A stretch of 13,098 bases of DNA, taken from assembly GCA_016839805.1 (NCBI GenBank), contig JAEOTO010000016.1, positions 1 to 13,098 of the forward strand, written 5' to 3'. The stretch comes from Candidatus Hermodarchaeota archaeon (GTDB lineage Archaea; Asgardarchaeota; Hermodarchaeia; Hermodarchaeales; Hermodarchaeaceae). A model generated the notes under the pieces. It searched no databases. It was not told the DNA's origin and saw only the letters and a list, made by a program, of their open reading frames with translations. Below, one piece after another: positions 1 through 13,097 of the stretch (position 1 is its first letter; the number at the start of each line of letters is the position of its first letter). A program made the translations under genes and the position numbers.

Positions 1-324
1 AAAAGTCATCGCCTGGATGTGGAAAGCCTGTTGGATTACAACGGGCTTCTAATCGGATTTGATTACCAAGCAAATACCGTGGTTTATGTTGTCTTTACAG
101 TCAAACTCGGAGTCATCGTGTGGTACAAGCATGCCTCGTATGCTGGGATGTTGTGCCATAACTGTCCAAAACTAAATGAATGCCGAGAAACCCTAGATAC
201 TGTTATTTCTGAGTATGACATCAAACTGCGACCCGATGAAGAGGTGTTACCGATGACACAGCAGTCTTCAGCGATTTTTAATAAACTGGCGGCGAAAGAA
301 ATTCCTCGTTATCAACGGAGTTGA
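1..324 (+). CDS. 5'-truncated conserved archaeal protein with Cys cluster (possibly C-terminal part of an HTH regulator)
   Basis: Frame is open from base 1 (KSHRLDVE...), so the GTG at 19 is probably internal. Contains WYKH...CHNCP...EC, a possible metal site. Its TGA overlaps the TTG start of the next gene. Confidence 0.65.
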   Translation, partial: KSHRLDVESLLDYNGLLIGFDYQANTVVYVVFTVKLGVIVWYKHASYAGMLCHNCPKLNECRETLDTVISEYDIKLRPDEEVLPMTQQSSAIFNKLAAKEIPRYQRS

Positions 325-1064
325 AACATTTGAAAAGAGAAAGAGAAGAGAGTCGTGTCATCCGACCTCCTGGAGAACCCATCACGCATGGACGTGTCTT
401 TACACCTTCTCCAACTTATTTCAAGAAACGCCTATTGGGTATGTTGCTCTTTGCGGCTATCCTTTATCTCATAATATTGGGCGGCTGGTTTGGGATCTCG
501 CTTATCGGATTATTTGACCCCGACTTTATTTGGATGAATATTGCATATTGGTGGCTTCCCATTACTATTGGTATGTGGCTGTTCAACTTCTTCTGGTTTA
601 TTCCTGCGACGATTTTGACTCATATGTACATTCGTAATATTGAGTACTCAGTGATTTCCGAATCAGGGGAAAGCATGCCTGAGGTTTATGTTAAGAAAGG
701 TCTGTTCAACCTCACTCGGAAGCATGTCCCGTTCCGCACTATTACTAACATCAGCACTAAAGCAAGTCTACTGGATCGTCTGTTTGGTATTGGTTCAGTG
801 AATATCGAAACCGCAGGATTCTCCGGTCAGAAAAAAGAACCAGAAGAAAAGCTTGAAGGGATTGAATTCTATGAGGAGGTCCGGGACTTTATTCTCCAGG
901 AACTACGGAAATTCCGTTCTCCCTATGTTACAGGCACTGAAACCGCGACATATTGGGATGACGAGATTCCCAAATTACCGGACTCATTGGATGACGAGAT
1001 TCTCATGACGTTACGCGATATGAAGGCTATCCTTGAGGATATCTCGAAAAAACTAACCAAGTAA
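321..1064 (+). CDS. Membrane-flanked bacterial PH domain protein (bPH_2 / YdbS-like)
   Basis: Two N-terminal TM segments followed by VKKGLF..TRKHVPFRTITNIS...LLDRLFGIGSVNIETAG, typical of bPH_2 (DUF304). Confidence 0.85.
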   Translation: MKHLKREREESRVIRPPGEPITHGRVFTPSPTYFKKRLLGMLLFAAILYLIILGGWFGISLIGLFDPDFIWMNIAYWWLPITIGMWLFNFFWFIPATILTHMYIRNIEYSVISESGESMPEVYVKKGLFNLTRKHVPFRTITNISTKASLLDRLFGIGSVNIETAGFSGQKKEPEEKLEGIEFYEEVRDFILQELRKFRSPYVTGTETATYWDDEIPKLPDSLDDEILMTLRDMKAILEDISKKLTK

Positions 1065-1086
1065 TCAAGCCTTCTTTCGCTCTCAG

Positions 1087-1119
1087 GAGGAAGGGAATCC
1101 TTCCTCTGTTTCTTTTTTT
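1087..1119 (+). terminator. Hairpin plus T-tract terminator
   Basis: GAGGAAGG-gaat-CCTTCCTC (1087-1106) followed by TGTTTCTTTTTTT, 22 nt after the stop at 1064. Confidence 0.65.
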
Positions 1120-1172
1120 AATTGGTCAAAAAGGAGAAGCATTCTTACTGTAGTCTATAATTACATTAACTA

Positions 1173-1200
1173 GGACCCGTGATCTCGGTTGAACGGGTCC
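1173..1200. other. GC-rich hairpin between convergent genes, possible terminator
   Basis: GGACCCGT-N12-ACGGGTCC, a perfect 8-bp stem. Confidence 0.45.
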
Positions 1201-1229
1201 CCCCTTCTTATTTTCAGATTTTAATTATC

Positions 1230-2213
1230 TTAAACATGGAGGATTATTGTAAGAATTTCGACAAGAAGAACGTGCATTAATGCGACAATGAGAATCTCCA
1301 CGATCGTAACAATATCAATTAGCCACGTTTTTTTCCTTTCAATGCGCGCCTCTTCTAATAACAAGAGCATCCGACGGGATGGTTCCTGCTCCTGGTCAAT
1401 TGGCCCGCTTATCAATTTCTGACGAATATTGTTAAGTTGAGTTGTTCGTGTCCTAGAAAAAAGAACATGAAAGTAATAGTGAGGAAATACCAGCGTTGGG
1501 AGGACAATTAGCAATATTGAACCATAAAGAAAGATGGGCGGTGCAGTAGCATAAGTCAATATCGCAAAAATCGAATAAATCCCTGAAACCAACAAGGCTA
1601 GCGTAATCAGGTTTCTAAACCCACTAAATGGCGACATCCACTCCGAAAGCATTTGATCATGAGTAAACGTGGTATTCACACAAATTTCTCTATAAGCCAG
1701 CGTCAACCCGAATGGAATCACATACATGAACATTCCCCCAAAAATATTCGAAGGTAACGCAGCTATTTGATAATAAATCGCGACTAAAAGTAGTTGATTA
1801 TACGAACCATAAAACGCCCAAATGGCCCAGGCTGGAGTAATAAGAATAGGCAAGTTCACTACAATCCAGAACAACACAATAGTCCAATACACCCTATGCT
1901 TGAGACGATGCATTGCTCGACTTTTCAAACGTTCAAACTCTTCTTCAGAACTAACCAGCGGTCTAATTTTATCGAGCGCATCCACAAACTTCCGATATAC
2001 GAACACAACGGATATCGCTGACAACGCCCCAATCACCGCAAGAAACACCCACTTTGGCTGGAATAAGAAGCGTTCAAAATTATCTGTGCCAATCATAACC
2101 GGTATCCCTAAAAGATACAAAATCAACCCAATCAATCCAAAAAGGAAAGGATACGGAATTCTTGCCTTACGTGCCAGAGTATCTAACCAGAAACCCAAAT
2201 TCAAACCTCCCAT
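1230..2213 (-). CDS. Hypothetical multi-pass membrane protein
   Basis: 327-aa ORF with about 7 hydrophobic segments; no family recognised. Confidence 0.75.
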   Translation of the reverse strand: MGGLNLGFWLDTLARKARIPYPFLFGLIGLILYLLGIPVMIGTDNFERFLFQPKWVFLAVIGALSAISVVFVYRKFVDALDKIRPLVSSEEEFERLKSRAMHRLKHRVYWTIVLFWIVVNLPILITPAWAIWAFYGSYNQLLLVAIYYQIAALPSNIFGGMFMYVIPFGLTLAYREICVNTTFTHDQMLSEWMSPFSGFRNLITLALLVSGIYSIFAILTYATAPPIFLYGSILLIVLPTLVFPHYYFHVLFSRTRTTQLNNIRQKLISGPIDQEQEPSRRMLLLLEEARIERKKTWLIDIVTIVEILIVALMHVLLVEILTIILHV

Positions 2214-2413
2214 ATTCCCTATCCGTTAAGATACCGAAATATCTTTCTTATTAAAAAAGACTGAAAATTTTTGAAAACCTCAAGAAAATGATCTTACAAT
2301 AATCAAATGCCTGAAATGTACTGTTTGGAAACAAAACAATAAACACTTTTAAGGAAACACTTAGAGAACCATTAGAACCCCATCGGGGGTATCAACAAGT
2401 ATTGGGTGAAACA

Positions 2414-2737
2414 ATGTCTGATACAGCTAAAACGTTAGTATTAATCGGTGGAATTCTGAACCTAATCGGCGCGCTCATTATGATCGGTGCATTTGCCATC
2501 TTTTTTGGATTCATGCTCTTCGATCCAATGGGAGTGATAATTGCACTCATGGTGGGTGCCATTTTCATCGTTCCAGCAATTCTGGGCCTCTTATTTGGGC
2601 TCCTTCCGCTCATGTGGCGAGATGAACCGGGACAGCATCGCGTCGGCCTTATCATCATCGGGATTTTGACCTTATTCTCTATTGGCGGAATTCTCCTCCT
2701 GATCGGTGGCATCATCGCAACGGAAGAGGCCGCCTAG
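2414..2737 (+). CDS. Small Gly-rich membrane protein (DUF4064-like, tentative)
   Basis: GGTGA RBS before ATG at 2414; hydrophobic helices LIGGILNLIG...GGILLLIGGII; candidate TATA (TTTTAAG) at ~2347. Confidence 0.7.
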   Translation: MSDTAKTLVLIGGILNLIGALIMIGAFAIFFGFMLFDPMGVIIALMVGAIFIVPAILGLLFGLLPLMWRDEPGQHRVGLIIIGILTLFSIGGILLLIGGIIATEEAA

Positions 2738-2797
2738 AAGCACACCGCTGTTTCAATAGGGTCACTCTTCCCCCCTTTTTCTTTTCAGAAGCTCTTA

Positions 2798-2980
2798 GTG
2801 GTCCATGACGAGACCGTTATTAAAGGGAAAAATGAAGGTGTGAATACGACCATTTTCTCAGCAGGATTGCGAACCAAACACTACCACAGACCCTCCGACA
2901 CTATTGACCCCCTCAACTTCGAGTTCATCACCAAATTATGTCAGACTACCAACGCCGCCACAATCGAATTAACTCTCTAG
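2798..2980 (+). pseudogene. C-terminal remnant of an M28-family metallopeptidase
   Basis: HYHRPSDTIDPLNFEFITK resembles the M28 C-terminal YH(T/R)PxDT motif; no upstream catalytic domain is present. Confidence 0.55.
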
Positions 2981-3039
2981 TCTGTACTCAATTGTTAAGT
3001 ACGCAAAAAATTAACTCTGAACAGCTCCTGGTGAAGAAA

Positions 3040-3504
3040 ATGAAAAATAAATCACCATTAACCGATTGGCATTTTCTCCTCGGAACCTGGAAAGGCACAG
3101 CAGAAGGACAATACAATGTAGTAGGTCAGATTACAAGCACCATCGAGTTTACCCTCGAACTCAACGGCACCTGCATCATGGCAAAACACGAAGCTTGGAC
3201 GGGCAACCAATTCGTAAACAGTAGCATTGGTCTGCTCTTCTACGACCAACTCACCAACCGGTTCCTCCGAAAAGTCCTCTACTCCTACAGCTTTATCAAC
3301 AACGATATCGAATACACACGAAGTGCCTCTGAAATCCGATTCGAAACCACCACCGAACCACTATCCCCCCAATTCCAAGGTATTCGCTGGCGTTCCTACA
3401 TCAAGAAACTCTCCGACACCGAAATCGCCCTCGGCTTAGAATCTGCAAAAGATGGAGGAAACTTCAAAGTCTATGGCGAAACGGTGGTTCAAAAAATCAG
3501 CTAG
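3040..3504 (+). CDS. Beta-barrel protein, DUF1579 / nitrobindin(THAP4)-like
   Basis: GGTGA RBS before ATG at 3040; N-terminal FLLGTWKG (calycin-type GxW motif); beta-strand-rich sequence. Confidence 0.7.
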   Translation: MKNKSPLTDWHFLLGTWKGTAEGQYNVVGQITSTIEFTLELNGTCIMAKHEAWTGNQFVNSSIGLLFYDQLTNRFLRKVLYSYSFINNDIEYTRSASEIRFETTTEPLSPQFQGIRWRSYIKKLSDTEIALGLESAKDGGNFKVYGETVVQKIS

Positions 3505-3539
3505 ACAAACAAAAAGCAATTCTCATATTACCATGCTAA

Positions 3540-3594
3540 TTCTGAATATTCATCTTCGAAATTCAGTCGAATGGAAAATAATCCTTGGGGAAAA
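3540..3594 (+). repeat. Intergenic element copy A (core only, divergent)
   Basis: TTCATCTTCG at 3549, N11, AATGGA, AAAA ending at 3594; TTCGA(3555-59) pairs with TCGAA(3567-71). Confidence 0.6.
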
Positions 3595-3626
3595 CCTCAA
3601 AAACTTCTCTCATCCTAAGATTTGAT

Positions 3627-4652
3627 ATGAAGAAGGTTCGGTTAGGCAAAACGGGTCTCCAAGTGTCACGGGTGGGGGTGGGCGGAATTCCCATTCTACT
3701 TCCACCTTTTGGTACAGCGGTGAAAGTCATTGAATGCGCCTTGGATTTAGGCATCAACCTGATTGACACCTCGGTGTATTACGATGACAGTGAACTTCGT
3801 TTTGGGAAGGCAATCGAAGGACGTCGAGACGATATCGTCGTGGTGACTAAATGTTCATGGCGATCAGCAAAGGCGACCCAACGTGCGCTAGAGAAGAGCT
3901 TGAAACAACTCAACACCGACTATATCGATATCTGGTTATTCCACAATGTGAGCACAGAGGACGCCTACAGGACGATGTTACGTCCGAATGAATCACTAAA
4001 GGTTGCAAAAGCAGCTTTGGAATTCGGAAAGGTGCACCATCTTGGACTGTCCACCCATTCGTTAGCTATGGCTCAAAAAGCCGTAGCTTCTGAATTGTTC
4101 GAAGTCGTTTTGTTTCCATTTAATTTTGTAACAAACCATGCGGAAGGGCAGCTTGTTCAATTGGCAAAGACACATGATGTGGGGTTCTTAGCCATGAAAT
4201 CGTTTGCTGGTGGGCAGTTGGCTGACCCGGATCTTGCCATTAAATATCTCCTGCAATTTGACAATGTTGTTCCCGTACCTGGGATTGAAACGGTTGAAAA
4301 TATCGAAGAGATCGTTAAGGTTGTAGAGGGGTCCTGGGAACTCACATCCCAGGATTGGCAACGTATTGAAACCATTCGAGCCAAACAGGGTTCGAAACTT
4401 TGTATGTGGTGTGAATACTGCAAACCGTGTCCCAAGGAGATCAACATACCTTGGGTAATGAATATCGAAAGCATGTGGATCCTATGGGGAAAAGCTGGAT
4501 TTCCGGGTCGTATGCTCAAACATATCGTAAAAGGAAGAGAATGTGACCAATGTGGTGAATGCGAAGACAAATGCCCCTATCAACTCAACATCCGCGAAAC
4601 CCTCACTGAACAAATCGAATACTATGATCGAGTAATCAAAGAACAACTCTAA
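3627..4652 (+). CDS. Aldo/keto reductase with C-terminal 4Fe-4S dicluster (COG1453-type)
   Basis: RLGKTGLQVS start, DTSVYY, VTK, YIDIWLFH; C-terminal CMWCEYCKPCP and CDQCGECEDKCP. ATG at 3627 preferred over TTG at 3585. Confidence 0.9.
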   Translation: MKKVRLGKTGLQVSRVGVGGIPILLPPFGTAVKVIECALDLGINLIDTSVYYDDSELRFGKAIEGRRDDIVVVTKCSWRSAKATQRALEKSLKQLNTDYIDIWLFHNVSTEDAYRTMLRPNESLKVAKAALEFGKVHHLGLSTHSLAMAQKAVASELFEVVLFPFNFVTNHAEGQLVQLAKTHDVGFLAMKSFAGGQLADPDLAIKYLLQFDNVVPVPGIETVENIEEIVKVVEGSWELTSQDWQRIETIRAKQGSKLCMWCEYCKPCPKEINIPWVMNIESMWILWGKAGFPGRMLKHIVKGRECDQCGECEDKCPYQLNIRETLTEQIEYYDRVIKEQL

Positions 4653-4654
4653 AC

Positions 4655-4727
4655 TGACTAAATCATTTGAGACGAATTACAAGTATGTCTTCGATACAGA
4701 TGTGAGTGGCATATATCGACTGAAAAA
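4655..4727 (+). repeat. Intergenic element copy B
   Basis: TCAT(4663)-N17-TATGTCTTCG(4684)-N11-AGTGGC...GAAAAA(4727); TATGTC pairs with GGCATA(4708-13). Confidence 0.8.
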
Positions 4728-4802
4728 CTACTTTGTCACTGCTGAAATCCATCGAAAGCGCGATCCGGTTTCCTCGTGAAGAGCTAGTCTCTGTGCCTGA
4801 AT

Positions 4803-4855
4803 CCAAAACTTTAAATGTTAAAATTTCAAACAAGTTTGTAATCCAAACCAGTTTG
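4803..4855 (+). promoter_or_regulatory. Promoter (BRE/TATA) with downstream palindromic operator repeats
   Basis: ccaaaac-TTTAAAT (TATA 4810-16); CAAACaaGTTTG (4827-38) and CAAACcaGTTTG (4844-55), 17-bp period. Confidence 0.6.
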
Positions 4856-4881
4856 ATACTAGAATACCAAGATGAATAACA

Positions 4882-5556
4882 ATGTCAATCTCAATGGAAT
4901 TAGACGCACTCGCCCTCAAAGCCCAACAATCATTCTATGAAGATGGCCTCGCCGACATATTCATGGGGGGCATCCTACTCCTTGTAGCCGTGTTAATTCT
5001 CCTTATCAGTCACTTCACATTTTTCCTAGTGTTTGCTATAGTCATCTTCAATCCGCTCATCTACAAGGCACTCATAGACAAAGCGAAACAACGGTGGGTG
5101 TACCCACGCGCCGGATACGTCCAACCTAAGCCACTTCACACCCCAACCAGGCGCGACAACCTCCTGGGAGTAGCCCTAATCCTGACACTTCTATTTGCAC
5201 CCATCCTGATCTTATTTGTCTCCTATAGTTACCCTGGTCTCATCATCTGGGTGACCTGGGTCGCGCCCGTATCCTTAGGCCTCCTATTCTCCATCGGACC
5301 GTTCATCGTTGCCCGCAAATATCACATCTACCGGTATTATCTCTTCGCGATACTGCCGCCCCTCCTTGGTCTCATCATTCCCTGGCTAAATCTATCCTTT
5401 CCTAGCATCTATGTTGCCTATTTCACCACCCTTGCCATCCAACTCAGCATCGCTGGCCTCATTGCACTGCTATCTGGCACCGTATTTTTCCTCCGATTCA
5501 TCCAACGATATCCCATCGAACTAACGGACGGTGATAGTACCAATGCTCTCCTCTGA
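4882..5556 (+). CDS. Hypothetical membrane protein co-transcribed with wHTH regulator
   Basis: About 6-7 TM segments; YEDGLADIFMG and YPRAGYV motifs; overlaps the downstream HTH gene. Confidence 0.8.
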   Translation: MSISMELDALALKAQQSFYEDGLADIFMGGILLLVAVLILLISHFTFFLVFAIVIFNPLIYKALIDKAKQRWVYPRAGYVQPKPLHTPTRRDNLLGVALILTLLFAPILILFVSYSYPGLIIWVTWVAPVSLGLLFSIGPFIVARKYHIYRYYLFAILPPLLGLIIPWLNLSFPSIYVAYFTTLAIQLSIAGLIALLSGTVFFLRFIQRYPIELTDGDSTNALL

Positions 5557-5869
5557 CGCTCCCGATAAATCACCCATTGCCCAAGATAAACTAGATCCGA
5601 TTATCCACTCCCCTGCCCGGCTCAAAATCTTGACCGTCCTTAAAGAAGTCGAGAGCGCGGATTTCCTCTTCATTTTACGCCACACAGGTCTCACGCGAGG
5701 CAACCTCTCCTCCCACCTCAGTAAACTAGAAACTGTCAACTATATTACGATAACCAAAGAATTCGTTGAAAAAATCCCCCGCACCCTCATCCAGCTCACA
5801 AAGGAAGGAAAAAACGCCTTAGAAACCTATCGCCAGCAAATGTTACAAAAACTTGAACGTCTAAAATAA
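5543..5869 (+). CDS. Winged-helix transcriptional regulator (HTH_34, ArsR/MarR-like)
   Basis: LDPIIHSPARLKIL..L...ADF......GLTRGNLSSHLSKLE...YI...K.F....PRT...LT.EG; GGTGAT RBS before ATG at 5543. Confidence 0.9.
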   Translation: MLSSDAPDKSPIAQDKLDPIIHSPARLKILTVLKEVESADFLFILRHTGLTRGNLSSHLSKLETVNYITITKEFVEKIPRTLIQLTKEGKNALETYRQQMLQKLERLK

Positions 5870-5873
5870 CACC

Positions 5874-5932
5874 TCATTTCTTCACAACTTTGTCTTCGAA
5901 ACTCAAGAGAATAGCACATAAAGTCCAGAAAA
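5874..5932 (+). repeat. Intergenic element copy C
   Basis: TCATTT(5874), TTTGTCTTCG(5889)-N11-AATAGC-ACATAA...AGAAAA(5932); shares AGCACATAA with copy E. Confidence 0.7.
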
Positions 5933-5976
5933 TTGCTTGTAACAAAAAGGGAATCTATGAAGGTAAAGTTGGGGCT

Positions 5977-6726
5977 TTAGGTTATCTTTTCAATGATAGC
6001 TACGTATTGTGCGTCGCCTGAATCTATAAATTCCCGAACCTGCCATCGTGTTCCATCCAGAATCTCTTTCATTTCGTCTTTGGAAACCATAAGCCAATCA
6101 AACCATTTTGTAACGAATTTCTCAAATCTTACTCGACCTCTTAATTGTCCACTCATTCGGTTTTTCTGCTTGTTGCGCTCGTAATATTCTAAATAGGTAG
6201 GGTTGTCGGTCTTGTATGGGTCACGAGTTTCCGCAATGATTAGAGCAGTTCGTTCGGTTATCCTATGAAGCTTTTTCAGCAGTCTTCGTGCTTTGGTGAA
6301 ACTGCCAAATAAACTGAAGTTGTTCCCCAACATAACAATTGTATCAAACGAGCTGGGCTTGAAAATAGCGTATTCAATTGACATGACTTTGACACGCTTC
6401 ACCCCTCTCAATTTACAAACCTTTACCGCGAGAGGAGAGCTGTCAATCCCGAGAACATCAAAACCCCTTTTTTGTAAGTACAGCGAATGTCTACCAGCTC
6501 CGCACCCAATATCCAAGACTTTTCCTTTCACGAACTCCATTGCCTTTTTTTCGTGAATCGCCCAATCGTCGTATTCTAAGAAATATCTTTTCGGCTCAGT
6601 AGAATACGCGGAAATATAACCGTCATCACTTTCCCATATTTCAAAAACTTCTCGACCCTGATAAAAAGCCCATATCTCCTGACCCACGGCATCCTCTTCA
6701 GGCTTCATAACTTTTGTTTTTCTCAT
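5977..6726 (-). CDS. Class I SAM-dependent methyltransferase
   Basis: [11 protein letters not shown] motif [16 protein letters not shown]. Start is uncertain (6747 GTG, 6726 ATG or 6708 ATG). Confidence 0.9.
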
Positions 6727-6809
6727 GAAATATTGTATATCCCACACTAGCTCTTAAATTTGAGAACTCAATTCACACAAAGTCTAAATGGATCTCCTTC
6801 AACTCATCT

Positions 6810-6902
6810 ATGACGTGAACCAAATCATCTTTCACATCATTTTTAAGAACCAGCATGTACGTCTTCGGAACTCATCCAAAGTGGCGAAAATCGCCCCTAA
6901 AA
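6810..6902 (+). repeat. Intergenic element copy D (31-bp palindrome + core)
   Basis: ATGACGTGAA-ccaaatcatct-TTCACATCAT (6810-40), N17, TACGTCTTCG(6858), AAGTGGCGAA, TAAAA(6902). Confidence 0.95.
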
Positions 6903-7061
6903 CCTCTCGCTTGTCTCATCGATGTGTCCATCCACATTGACTCTTCGTGCATCGTTTTTGATAAAACTTTATACAATTAATTCGCTGAGATTAGTGACAG
7001 CGTACAAAATTACTAACAAATAACAGAACGGAATCAGCAGTATTGGGAGGAAATCTGGAAA

Positions 7062-7811
7062 ATGCCTTTGGCTGAAGATCTTAAGAATCTCGCTCTGAAG
7101 GCGGGCTTTGTATCTGTTGGGATTGCTACACCCCAAATGCTTCAGGGCTTGCCACATGGATGGGTTAGCACAGTCATTAACCTGCAGACGCCGGAAGAGG
7201 CGTTATCGACTGTGAAATCAGTAATATTGCTGGGTTATTATGCCTGGGATAAGTCCTTCAATTTAGCAGTCGATGCATCTTATCTTGTGAGTCGCGAGAT
7301 GTACACACCAAACGTGCCAAAAGAACGCTACCAACTGTATGATGAAATCTTGAAGAATAAAGCCTGGACCATCGTGGACTACCTTACCAAGAAAGGATAT
7401 GAATCTAGCCTATCCCTTTCGATCCCGCTCAAAACAGCCGCCGTGCGATGCGGTCTCGGCAGCCAAGGGAAAAACACACTCCTAATTACTCCTAACTATG
7501 GACCGCGAATACGATTAATCGCCGTGCTAACAACAGCCGAACTAGAAGTCGATGAACCCTTCCAAGATGATTTATGTGGAGATTGTGGGAAATGCATCAC
7601 CACGTGTCCCACAAAGGCGTTGGAACCATATCAAATCACGATCAACCGGTGTCTGACGTATGCTGCAGAAGAACCCCATGCCCAAGCTGTCCCCGATGAT
7701 GTGCGAAAACTTGAAAAGAAACTCATTCAAAGACCCACTTCAAATAGCTACATAGAATGTTCCACTTGCATTGACGTTTGTCCAATCGGAAAACCGCTTA
7801 GGTCGAAATAA
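7062..7811 (+). CDS. Epoxyqueuosine-reductase (QueG)-like / reductive-dehalogenase-fold Fe-S protein
   Basis: KTAAVRCGLGSQGKNTLLITPNYGPRIRL; CGDCGKCITTCP and CSTCIDVCP clusters; GGAGG RBS. Confidence 0.85.
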   Translation: MPLAEDLKNLALKAGFVSVGIATPQMLQGLPHGWVSTVINLQTPEEALSTVKSVILLGYYAWDKSFNLAVDASYLVSREMYTPNVPKERYQLYDEILKNKAWTIVDYLTKKGYESSLSLSIPLKTAAVRCGLGSQGKNTLLITPNYGPRIRLIAVLTTAELEVDEPFQDDLCGDCGKCITTCPTKALEPYQITINRCLTYAAEEPHAQAVPDDVRKLEKKLIQRPTSNSYIECSTCIDVCPIGKPLRSK

Positions 7812-7842
7812 GTTTACAATTAGAGACACAAATACCTAATGA

Positions 7843-7935
7843 ATGACGTGAACCAAATCATCTTTCACATCATTTGTAAATAATCGCACATACGTCTTCG
7901 GCACTTACTAAATGCAGCACATAACTCACTAAAAA
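7843..7935 (+). repeat. Intergenic element copy E (31-bp palindrome + core)
   Basis: 7843-7875 is identical to 6810-6842 (33 nt); N17; TACGTCTTCG(7891); TAAAAA ending at 7935. Confidence 0.95.
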
Positions 7936-8118
7936 TAAACTGACGGCAATCAATGGGGTTAATTCACCCAGATACCGCAATATTATCTGAATTAACAGTT
8001 GGTTAAGCTCTGTTTATTATTATAATTATTGTAATATATAACTAAACATTATTGTTCATTGGGATTATATTAAGTGCGGCTACCATTAATTCATGCAAGG
8101 ATTTCTCGAGGGAGTTGC

Positions 8119-9489
8119 ATGAGATCGATTATAAAAAATCTTAGAAGATTCCTAGCTCTAATGCTGCTTTTTTCAGCGGTTTATCCGGTTTTTTATTATC
8201 CGCTAAATTCTGCTGGTTCTTCATGGGAACTTAAAACTTCAGAAACAATGCACGCCACATTACCGCATCATAAACTACAAGTGAATGATGAGCATTATCC
8301 AGAATGGAATGCAACATTAGGAGGGACTGGTACTCAAACCGGTGCTTCGATTATTGAATGCCGAAGTGGTGGTTATGCCATAGTTGGCCATGGCGCCGGC
8401 TGGGGAGTCAGAGATGCGTTTCTTATTCGTCTCGATCAGGATGGGGTGTTTCTTTGGAATCAGACGTATGGCGGGGAGGACATGGATGGGGCTGGAGGCA
8501 TTGTAGAATGTAGCGATGGTGGGTTTGCAATCACCGGGGGGTCATCGAATTTCACTACGGGAGACCACGCGTGGCTACTTCGCACTGATGCAAATGGTAA
8601 CCAACTTTGGAACTACACTTACCCAAGTATCAATTTTGATTCATTTGGGGCCATTATCGCGCTCTCAGGTGGCGGATTCGCCGTGTCAGGGAATACCGGG
8701 AGTTTTGGAGCAGGAGGAATGGATGCTTGGCTGGTCTTTTTTGACGCCCTTGGACAGCCAATTCAGAATTTCACCTATGGTGGTACTGACAACGATTACG
8801 CAACTCGTATGATCCGGTGTCAAAGTGGTGGATTTGCCATTGCAGGGACGACTAGCAGTTATGGGGAAGGAATACGGAGCTTGTGGTTGCTACGTGTCAA
8901 TGACAACGGCGATGTAGCTTGGAATCGAACCTATGGTGACGCCGGTTGGGATTCTCTATACGGTATCATCGAATGTCATAATCGAAACCTGGCCCTCGCT
9001 GGAACCGCAAACAGTACCGGGGCAGGTTCCTGGGACATGATTCTCATTCTAACTGATATGAATGGTAATGAGCTCTGGAACCAAACCTTTGGAGGCACCG
9101 ATAGAGATGGCGCCTATGATCTTGTCCAGCTAGCCGATCTAGGCTTTGCCCTAGCTGGTTGGACTTACTCCTTTGGAGCAGGCTCCGAGGATATCTGGGT
9201 TGTCCGCACCAACCAAAATGGAAACCAACTTTGGAATCAGACCTTTGGTGGAGCAAGTTATGATGAATGCTTTGACGTCGAAAAAACCTCAGACGGAGGG
9301 TTCATCCTGGTTGGTGATACCTTCAACTTCGGAGTACCCATCGATGTTTGGGTCCTTTATTTCAAAGACGACTCTCAACCCTTCACACCCTCACTTCCAA
9401 TAGAACTCATTGTAATCATAGTGATTATCATCCTTGTAATCGTTATTGCAGGACTACTATTGAATCGGCGCCGGCGAACAGCGGCTTGA
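8119..9489 (+). CDS. Secreted, C-terminally membrane-anchored repeat protein (probable 7-bladed beta-propeller)
   Basis: Signal-like N-terminus; seven ~50-aa W-N-x-T-(Y/F)-G-G...GG(F/Y)xxxG repeats; C-terminal TM followed by RRRR. Confidence 0.85.
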   Translation: MRSIIKNLRRFLALMLLFSAVYPVFYYPLNSAGSSWELKTSETMHATLPHHKLQVNDEHYPEWNATLGGTGTQTGASIIECRSGGYAIVGHGAGWGVRDAFLIRLDQDGVFLWNQTYGGEDMDGAGGIVECSDGGFAITGGSSNFTTGDHAWLLRTDANGNQLWNYTYPSINFDSFGAIIALSGGGFAVSGNTGSFGAGGMDAWLVFFDALGQPIQNFTYGGTDNDYATRMIRCQSGGFAIAGTTSSYGEGIRSLWLLRVNDNGDVAWNRTYGDAGWDSLYGIIECHNRNLALAGTANSTGAGSWDMILILTDMNGNELWNQTFGGTDRDGAYDLVQLADLGFALAGWTYSFGAGSEDIWVVRTNQNGNQLWNQTFGGASYDECFDVEKTSDGGFILVGDTFNFGVPIDVWVLYFKDDSQPFTPSLPIELIVIIVIIILVIVIAGLLLNRRRRTAA

Positions 9490-9570
9490 TCACCACCTCT
9501 AACTCCATGCAAAGCAGGAAATTGCACAAGGAATTTTACAAATTCCTAATAAAACCGTTAATCCAAAGGT

Positions 9571-9661
9571 ATGATGTGATACAAATCATCTTTCACGTCA
9601 TTTTTTAGAAACAGCATGTACGTCTTCGAAACCAATCAAAATTGCGTATAATGCAGAAAAA
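9571..9661 (+). repeat. Intergenic element copy F (31-bp palindrome + core)
   Basis: ATGATGTGAT-acaaatcatct-TTCACGTCAT (9571-9601), N17, TACGTCTTCG(9619), CGTA(9645), GAAAAA(9661). Confidence 0.95.
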
Positions 9662-9691
9662 TTATTGACTCGAACCATTTAATGTGTCTGG

Positions 9692-10969
9692 TTAATTCAA
9701 GGTGCCATTCTTTCCAGCTGTATTTTGATCCATTAAATTTTGATCACAATTATTGTTGGTTTCACTAGCACGATGGATGGCAAATTTAAGTGCAAGTGGT
9801 CCAAAGATTTGGAAAACAAGCGTTGAAATCCCAATAACACCAACAATGAGAAAAGCGTAATTTGGAAACCCTAGCTGATTTAGTCGATCCGCGATTACCA
9901 CGCTCAATCCTACTGCAACACCGGCTTGACTAAAAAGACATAATCCAAGATAACGTTTAACCGTTGGAGGATTATCCCCAATATTTGCGGCTAAACGCGT
10001 TCCGAGATATTTCGCCAAACCTCGCCCAATTACATAAAGGATGCTCGTCGTAACAATAAATATGCCTCCGATTGTTATCACGGCGGGGTCAATCATCCCA
10101 GCGCCGAAGAGAACAAAGAAAAGCAGTATTACGGGGCTAGTGATTTTTTCTGCCTCATGACTTAGTTCTTGTGCTTCCTTCGGTCCACGGTTACCCACAA
10201 CTATCCCTAAAATCATACAAGAGAGAAGAGAACTGAAGTGTAAAAATTCTGCAATCCCAATAACGAGGAGAATCACACTCACTAACAACAGTATATACCG
10301 TCCATGATCATCCACACGTTTTAATACAAATGTAAGAAGAACCCCTACACCTGCACCCAAGACCAAGGACATACTGATTTCAATTACTGGTGCTGCAACA
10401 AGAAGAGATAATGGCAAAACTACTGGGACAAGAAACAACAAAACTATACTCATTGTAATGCTGGTAAGGATAATTGCGATGACATCGTCGATGATTAATG
10501 TGAACATAACTGCATCTGTGACCGGACCCCGGCTTTTGAATTCCCAGATTACATCTGCTGTTGCTGCAGGAGCAGTAGCACTAGCTAGACCGGCTAATAG
10601 AATGGCTGGTATTGGGTCACGAAGCCAGAAGAAGACAAGACTAAAAACGAGGAGAGCAGAACCAAGGCTTTCAGCTAAGATAATGGGTATCAAGTTCCGT
10701 GACTGTTGTCGAATTTTACTAAACTTGAGTTCATTTCCAATATTATAACCGATGAATCCTAACGCTACAGCAGTAACCACTGGTGAAAGAGCAAGAAGCC
10801 TTTCATCTATCAGACCCAGAAAGAGAGGGCCAAGTACAATTCCTGTTAGGATAAAACCAAGAACTTGAGGTATTCCTAAGCGATGTTGGATTTCCGCACT
10901 TATTACTGTCAGAACTACAACTAGGCTGACGACTAACAGTAGTGGAAGATCAATAACAAGCTGTAGCAT
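9692..10969 (-). CDS. Cation:proton antiporter (Na_H_Exchanger, CPA2/Kef-type membrane domain)
   Basis: About 12 TM segments; IPQVLGFILTGIVLGP, ASATAPAAT, IIDD, FFVLFG, SQAGVAVGL motifs. Confidence 0.9.
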   Translation of the reverse strand: MLQLVIDLPLLLVVSLVVVLTVISAEIQHRLGIPQVLGFILTGIVLGPLFLGLIDERLLALSPVVTAVALGFIGYNIGNELKFSKIRQQSRNLIPIILAESLGSALLVFSLVFFWLRDPIPAILLAGLASATAPAATADVIWEFKSRGPVTDAVMFTLIIDDVIAIILTSITMSIVLLFLVPVVLPLSLLVAAPVIEISMSLVLGAGVGVLLTFVLKRVDDHGRYILLLVSVILLVIGIAEFLHFSSLLSCMILGIVVGNRGPKEAQELSHEAEKITSPVILLFFVLFGAGMIDPAVITIGGIFIVTTSILYVIGRGLAKYLGTRLAANIGDNPPTVKRYLGLCLFSQAGVAVGLSVVIADRLNQLGFPNYAFLIVGVIGISTLVFQIFGPLALKFAIHRASETNNNCDQNLMDQNTAGKNGTLN

Positions 10970-11019
10970 AGGAATTCACTAGTTTTTATGTAGTCAGAGT
11001 AAAATACAAATCTAATATT

Positions 11020-11040
11020 GTTTATATAAACTTATTTCTA
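11020..11040 (-). promoter_or_regulatory. BRE/TATA promoter for the antiporter
   Basis: Minus strand reads tagaaataag-TTTATATAAAC, ~50 nt upstream of the ATG; GTTTATATAAAC is a perfect palindrome. Confidence 0.55.
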
Positions 11041-11059
11041 TAATAAATGGAAAGGGTTG

Positions 11060-11128
11060 TTTTCGTTATGGAACTGCATGTTCGCTTTCGCTACTCAACC
11101 AAAGTGGCGAATAATACACTAGAAAAAA
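11060..11128 (+). repeat. Intergenic element copy G (core only)
   Basis: GCATG-TTCGCTTTCG-CTACTCAACC-AAAGTGGCGAA aligns without gaps to copy D GCATG-TACGTCTTCG-GAACTCATCC-AAAGTGGCGAA. Confidence 0.88.
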
Positions 11129-11202
11129 GCTCTGCCCAATATGATTTTGGCTATTCATAGAGATAGAGCTCTTTATTGAACCTGTTGTGTAAATTATTGT
11201 CA

Positions 11203-11664
11203 TCAGGTCAACGAACTTGCCTTTCGTGAATGCCAGCTCACAATGAGGATGACCACCAGCATCCACATCACACCCAGCAATAATGATCCCAAGAATATAG
11301 GAAGCGGAAGCAGTCCTGCCATTGCATAGATCAAATAAGTCACTGCGACCACCGGCTGGTAAAGGAAAATCGCCGTGATCACTCCAGGCGTGTATCTCCT
11401 TTCCCGCACGGAATTCCGAATATGGATAAGTCCATTCGTTGCAATTAACGCAGCTACAGAAAGGCTGAATAGTGGAAACGCCGCATTTACCATGAGCGCA
11501 GTTACACATAGTAGCAGGAAGAGCGCATTCACTATCCAAAACTGTCGAGCCGTCATTGAAGGCATATAGCGCTGAAACCAAGAAACCCATCCGGTGAGAG
11601 TCTCCTCGATAATATGTAATACACCTGAAATCAATACCAACCAAAAAACTACAACCAGAACCAC
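11203..11664 (-). CDS. HXXEE domain-containing membrane protein
   Basis: LHIIEE motif, NGLIHI and RRYTPGVITA; hydrophobic throughout. Confidence 0.88.
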   Translation of the reverse strand: MVLVVVFWLVLISGVLHIIEETLTGWVSWFQRYMPSMTARQFWIVNALFLLLCVTALMVNAAFPLFSLSVAALIATNGLIHIRNSVRERRYTPGVITAIFLYQPVVAVTYLIYAMAGLLPLPIFLGSLLLGVMWMLVVILIVSWHSRKASSLT

Positions 11665-11938
11665 AATAACGCCCTCAATCCGTAATTAGGATGGTTAGTG
11701 CATCGAATAATATTCATTAACAGTTCAACTCTTTAAAGATTCAAGATAAGGTTCTCCTTCTAGATTTGATTAAAAACAAGATTCTTGCTTTGTCGCGTTT
11801 GGTATGCCTTGGGCAGCTCCCTATCCCAGATCAACGAGTTCTATTATCCAAGTAGCAACTTATAACGATGGGGTTTTTCGCGATCCAATTGCTCTTATAG
11901 AACTATGAGAAAAACAATTCTCGGTTTGGACAAGAGAT

Positions 11939-12029
11939 GCGATGTGAAACAAATCATCTTTCACATCATTTGTCAGAATTGCACTTACATCTTCGAAAAT
12001 GCTACAACAAGTCTATAACACTTGGAAAA
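11939..12029 (+). repeat. Intergenic element copy H (31-bp palindrome + core)
   Basis: GCGATGTGAA-acaaatcatct-TTCACATCAT (11939-69), N16, TACATCTTCG(11986), GAAAA(12029). Confidence 0.93.
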
Positions 12030-12113
12030 GAGATCTACTCTAAGAAAATCAAGAATCTTTACTTAACTACCGTCCTCGATTTAGACCACCTTGAAAGAAA
12101 TTCAACTAGGAAA

Positions 12114-12551
12114 CTAATCGAGAACTTCATGTCGATGATGTACAAGACGTTCAGCATACGAATACGCTGCAAATCTATCTACATCTTTTTGACTGACAAT
12201 ACCGACGAGTTTCCCTTCATCATCAATAACGGCTAGTCTGCTCACCTTGGATTTCAGAAATTCATCCTCAGCCTGACTAATTGGTGTATTCATATGAATT
12301 GTTTGGACCGGGCTTACCATCACGTCCTTCGCAACATAATCCATTGGATTACGCCCCTTGGCAATCAACCTAAAGATTATCCCATCTGTCACGATTCCTA
12401 CTGGCTTCCCGTTCTCTTCGATTAAAACAGTACTAACCCAAGAATCAACCATTTTTTTGGCAACAACAGGCAGGGAATCATTCAAGTGACCTGTAATAAC
12501 TTTTTTCCGGGCCACCTCGATTATACGCTTTGACTTGGTCACCCTTATCAC
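12114..12551 (-). CDS. CBS domain pair protein
   Basis: GKPVGIVTDGII and RLAVIDDEGKLVGIVSQKDV; two CBS repeats. Confidence 0.9.
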   Translation of the reverse strand: MIRVTKSKRIIEVARKKVITGHLNDSLPVVAKKMVDSWVSTVLIEENGKPVGIVTDGIIFRLIAKGRNPMDYVAKDVMVSPVQTIHMNTPISQAEDEFLKSKVSRLAVIDDEGKLVGIVSQKDVDRFAAYSYAERLVHHRHEVLD

Positions 12552-12645
12552 TATCCAATCCTTTGCAAAGTGGTTAATTAAAAAACGATTGGTCTTCTAA
12601 ATCATTCAACAACACGAGGGCAAAAAACCGCCCTAGCTGAACCTG

Positions 12646-12709
12646 CCACTTATTGAAATAGCTGTTACGTCTTCGAATCTACTCTGAATGGCGATTAACG
12701 CACCGAAAA
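12646..12709 (+). repeat. Intergenic element copy I (core only)
   Basis: TACGTCTTCG(12666)-N11-AATGGCGA-ttaa-CGC-acc-GAAAA(12709); folds 12661-12701. Confidence 0.88.
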
Positions 12710-12932
12710 CTTGTGTGCTCTACTCTTAAACGGGCATCAAGCTCCTCCATGACCTAAGTTAGTAAACCTCAAACAATGTAGAAGCGCGCTAGCAAAACTT
12801 ACCTTCCTGTTTTTCTTTGACGAAACACAATTACTTGCCCCAGGCCGCGTCAACCATAGCTACTATAGGAAAGACCGCTTCTGTCTCCTCTAAAGTCCCA
12901 TATTTGACGAAATCAGCTTCAATTGGACACTA

Positions 12933-13097
12933 TTATTCGATGAGTCTTAATTCCCGCAGGTGATCTGCAAGGAGGTAGATGGCCTTCTTCGTAATGGATT
13001 CTTTATTCGTGCCAGCACACACAATTCGACCACTACTAAAGAGGAGAAAAACAGCCTTTGGCGTCTTCATCCGGTAGATGAGCCCGGGAAAAACTTC
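12933..13097 (-). CDS. tbp: TATA-box binding protein, C-terminal 54 aa (gene continues past the window edge)
   Basis: Manual translation: EVFPGLIYRMKTPKAVFLLFSSGRIVCAGTNKESITKKAIYLLADHLRELRLIE*, matching the TBP repeat signature FPGL.YR...PK...L.F.SG..V..G. Confidence 0.93.
   Translation of the reverse strand, partial: EVFPGLIYRMKTPKAVFLLFSSGRIVCAGTNKESITKKAIYLLADHLRELRLIE

Follow-up and report, generated by a model that had tools for sequence, protein, structure and literature searches.

Nine co-oriented intergenic elements of a Candidatus Hermodarchaeum contig as probable junction sites of a mobile gene-cassette array

Of the devices that prokaryotes have for stockpiling and reshuffling single genes, integrons are, to our knowledge, the only one that is well understood. 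On Acinetobacter plasmids, gene modules are set off by pdif sites, full 11-6-11 palindromes whose orientation alternates. The organism treated here belongs to the Asgard archaea, the closest known relatives of eukaryotes. The integrons reported so far from archaea have canonical attC sites and IntI (PMC9668308), and the description of the Hermodarchaeota makes no mention of cassettes or recombinases (PMC8163825). We analyzed a window of 13,098 nt, which is the entire contig C1 (JAEOTO010000016.1) of a 2.31-Mb, 50-contig metagenome-assembled genome (MAG) of Ca. Hermodarchaeum (GCA_016839805.1, here G000), in which nine copies of a short element separate accessory genes. At a probability that we put at roughly 75–80%, these elements are the junction sites of a chromosomal mobile gene-cassette array specific to Ca. 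Hermodarchaeum. The array works like a sedentary chromosomal integron or a CALIN (cluster of attC sites lacking integron-integrases) but fails the integron tests of attC fold, end boxes, IntI and gene orientation, and no description of such arrays was found in the literature searched.

The original prediction, made from the letters of the window, placed nine 10-mer cores on the plus strand, one in every intergenic gap from 3540 to 12709; all nine 10-mers are in place, and the count of one copy per gap is correct. It had also called for a covariance model, and a sequence-only model (R1, from 31 genomic copies) gives nine window matches, all on the plus strand, with E from 4e–15 to 2e–7; the chance of all nine lying on one strand is 2^–8. 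These junction elements, numbered from the left, span 3539–3599 (core ATCTTCG at 3552–3558, also supported by the alignment), 4673–4738 (core GTCTTCG at 4687–4693), 5882–5945 (core 5892–5898), 6843–6908 (core 6861–6867), 7876–7952 (core 7894–7900), 9604–9678 (core 9622–9628), 11067–11140 (degenerate core GCTTTCG at 11084–11090), 11975–12048 (core ATCTTCG at 11989–11995) and 12653–12729 (core 12669–12675). From left to right the element is composed of an optional palindrome, a left module GTAAGAAA.AGCA..TAY, the near-invariant core GTCTTCG, and a right module of AAAC, ~8 variable nt, GAATGGC..ATAAC, an A-run and TGCTC. Two parts foreseen in the prediction are conserved columns of the alignment, its ARTGGC-like segment as a (G)AATGGC-like block ~19–21 nt past the core G, and its A-run at ~+40 to +47. 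The element also extends beyond that first description, through ~12 conserved nt left of the core (A..GCA..TAY) and through the TGCTC block past the A-run. The optional 30-nt palindrome module, of the type GATGTGAAA..TTTCACATC, is present in about half of the 31 aligned copies; four window copies carry it ~20 nt upstream on the plus strand, at 6810–6840 (the 3′ end of cassette 3), 7843–7873, 9571–9601 and 11941–11970.

A profile hidden Markov model built from the nine copies finds ~33–37 copies in the genome, located only on C1 (nine, plus strand), C19 (seven to eight, plus), C20 (seven, minus), C39 (five to six, plus), C25, and the ends of C42, C33 and C38. The copies are thus not scattered genome-wide in both orientations, but are clustered on a few contigs and co-oriented on each. 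Over 21 array contigs from 10 species, co-orientation within the contig holds for 129 of the 130 copies. The R1 model detects the element in 13 of the 14 other species of Ca. Hermodarchaeum, in none of four sister-genus genomes, and in none of 42 other genomes of the phylum. When one genome for each of 185,579 species was scanned for the palindrome-plus-core pattern, archaeal matches came only from MAGs labelled Hermodarchaeum, Hermodarchaeota or Promethearchaeota (with one Thorarchaeota and two ‘uncultured archaeon’), and the six isolated bacterial matches compare with ~5 estimated by chance. Arrays reach ~55 kb within long contigs, extending over 4.8–59 kb of contig 58 in G006 (Ca. Hermodarchaeum yapensis), 0.3–46 kb of contig 42 in G012 and 0.2–51 kb of contig 66 in G008. 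We regard them as chromosomal because the first element of G001 comes right after a core HdrA-MvhD/hydrogenase/Mtd operon, a block that is also present upstream of the array in G008. The assembly forks past the gene for a TATA-binding protein (TBP) paralogue at the right end of the window, C1 continuing into C19 or into C20 reversed, and then into C39. Since arrays break assemblies, they are probably under-represented in MAGs.

Mobility of the units between the elements was evident from an all-against-all BLASTN comparison of array contigs. The cassettes of the window recur singly in other species, on different contigs or in non-adjacent places, and beside different neighbours. Four homology blocks (5893–6867, 9622–11090, 11087–11998 and 11940–12677) begin and end at cores or within a few nt of them. 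The units of cassette 3 (5893–6867) and cassette 8 (11940–12677) are 80% and 85% identical, respectively, to parts of G003 contig 83, on which the cassette 8 homologue comes immediately before the cassette 3 homologue. The block 9622–11090 (cassette 6) matches G014 contig 21, and its inner part is matched by G008 contig 66 and G011 contig 17. The unit 11087–11998 (cassette 7) is 88% identical to G007 contig 43, and part of this HXXEE cassette recurs, with a different right junction, at the end of contig C33 of the same genome (95%). Two further blocks end at a core: 7045–7900 (cassette 4), found on G014 contig 40 with its inner part on G012 contig 42, and 7838–9631 (cassette 5), 87% identical to G014 contig 32. 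Gene order fixed across relatives, with no breaks at the element, would have spoken against gene capture; the order is not fixed, and homology breaks at the core.

The junctions were then treated quantitatively by classing pairs among 130 elements, the two members lying on different contigs and homology being judged over 330 nt further upstream or downstream. There were 93 informative pairs, of which 50 shared the downstream unit only and 43 the upstream unit only; none shared both, so cassette adjacency is never conserved across an element, even as the recurring cassettes themselves are 70–97% identical. In downstream-homologous pairs, identity is no higher than background to the left of the core and rises abruptly at +7, directly past GTCTTCG. 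The best upstream-homologous pair (C19:8803 vs. G006 contig 58) gives the complementary picture, being identical to +7 and unrelated beyond.

We measured the element against known classes of site. Rfam 15, proposed as a check in the original prediction, gives no match at E ≤ 1 over the whole window. The core and right module have no consensus fold on either strand (RNAalifold, 31 copies), and when either strand of the nine window copies is folded as single-stranded DNA, z lies between –2.3 and +1.7, which is no improvement on shuffled sequence; the sole folding part of the window copies is the optional upstream 10-bp stem. The absence of attC end boxes, noted in the prediction, extends to the whole set: a RYYYAAC...GTTRRRY pair 45–140 nt apart occurs in none of 127 elements, compared with 3 of 645 random control windows. 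The element alignment contains no terminal inverted repeats, and no IntI was found in 15 genomes. Among 101 cassettes from ten species, 98 open reading frames (ORFs) run in the direction of the element and 96 in the opposite direction; this near-equality rules out a promoter or terminator role, as the prediction had argued from the window.

Taken together with integrons, the likeness is one of architecture. As in sedentary chromosomal integrons and CALINs (PMC9668308), there are long chromosomal arrays of mostly one-gene accessory cassettes in which each junction has a single co-oriented site, relatives differ in the order of their cassettes with the breaks falling inside the site, and mostly no recombinase is assembled nearby. 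Unlike those of integrons, the Hermodarchaeum site is not an attC, having neither a single-strand hairpin nor RYYYAAC/GTTRRRY boxes; most of its conserved sequence is 3′ of the crossover, where the following cassette begins; the genes face both ways equally, hence there is no common Pc-type promoter logic; and in place of an IntI with its extra domain, the candidate is an Xer-like zinc-ribbon integrase whose own site is a simple palindrome. The claim of an undescribed gene-capture system is thereby strengthened, as the element fails the attC fold, end-box and Rfam tests and cassettes are shuffled with breaks at the core. The companion claim, that the enzyme lies outside the window, is borne out in part: no recombinase is encoded in the window, so an outside enzyme fits, while the acting enzyme, like the recombination chemistry and the circular intermediates, is something that we infer.

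The genome has two tyrosine recombinases, on C28 (315 aa) and C24 (359 aa). The C28 protein is a bona fide XerA, at 266 bits to NF040815 (cut-off 220), and XerA proteins of 313–315 aa above the NCBIfam cut-off are present in 12 of 15 congeneric MAGs, where other integrases are sporadic. The C24 integrase (C24:288–1367, minus strand) is Xer-like but divergent, and carries a zinc ribbon at its C terminus. Its best family match is the same archaeal XerA model, at only 118 bits; it falls far below the cut-off of the IntI model TIGR02249 (51 bits vs. 265, N-terminal part only), and is 28% identical to the XerA of its own genome over the catalytic domain. A palindrome, TTGGCAGATAT-GTCTTCG-TTATATGCCAT, lies 54 bp upstream of the C24 integrase start codon, with 11-7-11 inverted arms around the same 7-mer that forms the invariant core of the array. 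The array left arm (GCA..TAY) is the arm motif of this palindrome, and the GC..ATAAC block at +21 repeats that motif once more, in direct orientation. Outside the arrays, the 10-mer TAYGTCTTCG occurs only four times in 2.3 Mb, the C24 palindrome being one of them.

This pairing of integrase and palindrome recurs in five other public assemblies or contig sets, of which at least four come from other populations: the independent metagenome contig L077, whose integrase is 89% identical; two metagenome contigs from the Joint Genome Institute (JGI), L099 and L098, the latter 99.85% identical to G006 contig C35 and reaching into the first codons of the integrase gene; and Logan contigs from two more runs. 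The pattern of arm, 8–10 nt and inverted arm was found in 2 of the 15 genomes (three with the hybrid junction described below), in each of the two beside a C24-type integrase; at 2 of 15 the palindrome is therefore not a genus-wide dif, nor demonstrably the platform of the array. Searches for a second dif-like palindrome in the genome (11-bp arms with 6–8 nt spacers; arm-motif pairs with a 5–9 nt spacer) gave none that was convincing. In common with archaeal XerA/dif (Cortez et al. 2010, PMC2958812), the pair consists of an Xer-family tyrosine recombinase and an inverted-repeat site; unlike archaeal dif, which is single-copy, 11-6-11 and genus-wide, the palindrome has a 7-nt spacer and stands beside its own integrase in those few genomes. 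The arrays also resemble Xer-dependent dif modules and integrative mobile elements exploiting Xer (IMEX), in that short sites containing Xer-type arm motifs delimit the gene modules and an Xer-family enzyme is the suspected catalyst. They differ from pdif modules in that the array sites are asymmetric, ~80–140 nt long and all direct, with one arm by a 7-nt core, and in that the palindromic version is tied to an integrase other than XerA.

Several further observations concern the surroundings of the integrase. More distant integrase homologues (L075, L076, G014 contig 9 and G004 contig 157) have no array element or related palindrome nearby. In L076 (7116–10081), a JGI metagenome contig, a 45%-identical homologue is followed by genes for Arf/Ras/Roc-type small GTPases, and these neighbours suggest that the integrase family is spread among Asgard-like genomes. 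Four copies of an iteron-like sequence (ACCGTGCAT / ACCGTGTAT / ACCATGTGC) occupy C24 30–200, downstream of the integrase and just before the contig end, and two independent assemblies end within ~300 nt of the integrase 3′ end. Direct repeats of ~27 nt (ttacacgg..tttcgcactatagtgc) at C24 1585–1612 and 4690–4722 flank a 3.1-kb block of GYD, PQQ-propeller and YbjN-like genes; the block is absent from G006, where the repeat motif lies ~20 nt from the palindrome, and the repeat is possibly a second kind of insertion site. In Logan run X1 a contig begins at C24:1412, and only low-depth variants cover the integrase part; these depths hint at heterogeneity at the site but cannot be read as copy number. 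A recombinase gene at the array flank was considered and rejected, since the conserved block next to the first element of G001 and G008 is the HdrA-MvhD/hydrogenase/Mtd operon.

A direct connection between the two kinds of site was observed on G005 contig 82, where GTCTTCG links an array cassette, complete with palindrome module and left arm, to the integrase palindrome's right arm, TTATATGCCAT. The same cassette lies inside the arrays of G014 (82% identical) and G008 (77%). About 1.1 kb past the junction is an ORF homologous to one of 256 aa that is found after the palindrome in both G000 and G006, two genomes that are syntenic in the flank downstream of the 256-aa ORF. Such a hybrid is what recombination between the palindrome and an array element at their shared core would produce, and it argues that both site types belong to one recombination system.

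We propose that each cassette holds one gene or a few, in either orientation, with the right module as its head and the left module, often preceded by the palindrome module, as its tail, and that adjacent cassettes are joined through the 7-nt core. Conservative site-specific recombination, with the crossover in or at the core, would excise cassettes, re-insert them and exchange them between species, a process by which all sites would stay co-oriented. The site would be used as protein-bound double-stranded DNA rather than as a folded single strand. The likeliest catalyst would be an Xer-type tyrosine recombinase, and the first candidate is the C24-type zinc-ribbon integrase, whose neighbouring palindrome is a ‘full’ site (arm, GTCTTCG, inverted arm) sharing core and arm motif with the array; XerA is the second. 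That the C24-type integrase is the array enzyme is a tentative assignment, at somewhat less than even odds; the same role for XerA is doubtful, and what probability remains goes to another enzyme or to none. It is also possible, short of being probable, that the whole is a gene-capture system parallel to integrons in function and independent in origin, in which a zinc-ribbon Xer-derived recombinase would recombine its own palindrome with asymmetric duplex sites, each composed of one arm, a 7-nt overlap and a direct accessory arm, thereby building and reshuffling arrays of tens of kb of self-expressed cassettes, some of them with paralogues of core factors such as TBP.

A number of results weigh against this proposal. 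An integron-like platform predicts the reciprocal junction, in which the integrase-side arm passes through the core into an array-type right module; searches of the genus, of 241 million metagenome records and of four Logan runs did not find it, an absence that proves little because these are contigs only, with no raw reads. The DNA beside the integrase begins to differ between populations at the outer edge of the right arm, not at the core, with at least seven continuations, which a simple attI model does not predict. Array elements have just a single arm adjoining the core, an unusual arrangement for a tyrosine recombinase acting on duplex DNA. Two of ~24 high-identity pairs break near +45, at the A-run and not at the core, so not every event took place there. 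Protein searches of the 15 congeneric MAGs found the C24-type integrase in G000 only; its closest homologues are on contigs of 1.3–3.4 kb, and with contigs so short, binning may lose the integrase from MAGs. Finally, no recombinase gene, xerA included, was found in or beside any assembled array.

That last result, together with the sporadic occurrence of other integrases, bears also on a reading in which the housekeeping XerA shuffles the cassettes, as in Xer-dependent dif modules and IMEX, the elements serving as dif-like half sites and the C24 integrase coming from an unrelated integrative element that targets the same core. The presence of XerA in 12 of the 15 MAGs speaks for it, as does the arm motif GC..ATAA, which presumably resembles the inner part of the Xer binding arms of E. 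coli dif. We nonetheless judge it unlikely: no genus-wide dif-type palindrome with these arms exists, the two genomes that have such a palindrome each carry it beside a C24-type integrase, the array elements lack both an inverted second arm and the 11-6-11 layout of archaeal dif (PMC2958812), and xerA is not near any array.

The array could also do without a dedicated enzyme, the element being a protein-binding or regulatory intergenic sequence and the shuffling being due to homologous or microhomology-mediated recombination between direct repeats. Such recombination would likewise preserve co-orientation, no recombinase is linked to the arrays, and the 2 of ~24 close pairs that break near the A-run would be accommodated. 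It sits poorly, however, with unrelated copies being continuously identical over only ~8–14 nt at the core, and with breaks falling elsewhere than in the longest shared tract, the 30-nt palindrome module; a near-invariant 7-mer and conserved blocks at fixed spacing suggest a protein footprint, the hybrid junction passes into the integrase-associated palindrome exactly at the core, and the 98:96 gene orientation ill suits a regulatory role. We consider this reading quite improbable, and more improbable still, to the point of being barely credible, is repeated insertion of a small non-autonomous transposable element into the intergenic DNA of one region, whether a miniature inverted-repeat transposable element (MITE), a repetitive extragenic palindrome (REP) or a relative of palindrome-associated transposable elements (PATE). 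The element is indeed a short and strictly intergenic repeat, some copies of which have a palindrome as do REP and elements derived from IS200/IS605 insertion sequences. Against this, there are no terminal inverted repeats, target duplications or Rfam match, the copies are strictly clustered and co-oriented, and it is the flanking units, not the element, that recur in new contexts; empty sites, with the same two genes adjacent and no element, were not found, and none of the 93 pairs keeps both neighbours. Aloposons (PMC8813620), which are giant-gene transposons at tRNA sites, were also considered and rejected.

The cassettes of the window carry unrelated accessory genes, as had been predicted, and Pfam-type annotation of the ORFs agrees. 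Cassette 1 (3585–4652, plus strand) encodes an aldo/keto reductase (PF00248) with a C-terminal Fe-S motif. Cassette 2 (4882–5869, plus) encodes a membrane protein and a winged-helix regulator (HTH_34/ArsR-like), whose overlapping genes (4882–5556 and 5531–5869) make this the only two-gene interval, in line with the prediction. Next are a SAM methyltransferase in cassette 3 (5977–6747, minus), a 4Fe-4S protein (Fer4_16) in cassette 4 (7062–7811, plus), and in cassette 5 (8074–9489, plus) a 471-aa repeat protein without Pfam match; the latter is predicted to be secreted or membrane-anchored, has a 156-nt (52-aa) internal periodicity (..LWNQT.GG..) and looks, from its sequence, like an uncharacterized beta-propeller-type repeat. 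The remaining cassettes are all on the minus strand, with a Na+/H+ exchanger in cassette 6 (9692–10969), an HXXEE membrane protein in cassette 7 (11203–11664) and a CBS-pair protein in cassette 8 (12114–12551). The unit that follows contains the 3′ part of the TBP paralogue gene (12933–13097, minus). Two versions of the TBP gene, with 92.6% identity, come after the same 116-nt contig end, at C19 1–624 and C20 9088–9712. Homologues are also present in arrays of G006 and G014, and thus a core transcription factor seems to travel as cargo. By the sum of array contigs, arrays make up ~3% of the genome, with cargo that includes transporters, redox enzymes, regulators and the TBP paralogue.

Left of the first element (window 1–3540) are five genes with weak homologues on array contigs of G001 and G011 (72% over 200–450 nt); the array may once have reached into this part, its sites having since been lost. 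The same element-free part has a 21-nt direct repeat (TCCCCCCTT.TT.TTTTCAGA, 90% identical) at 1198–1218 and 2769–2789, downstream of two genes. The first copy is preceded by a GC-rich hairpin, and the repeat may be a terminator-type signal.

New in this analysis are the quantitative treatment of the junctions, the pairing of integrase and palindrome across populations, the hybrid junction, and the negative outcome for the idea that the site is the cell's own dif. If our reading is true, Ca. Hermodarchaeum would have a second device of this kind, mechanistically different from the integron, and cassette-type gene capture would have evolved more than once. It would also bring to light a new pair of recombinase and site working on ordinary duplex DNA, and would provide a route for the accessory-gene flux seen in Hermodarchaeum genomes.

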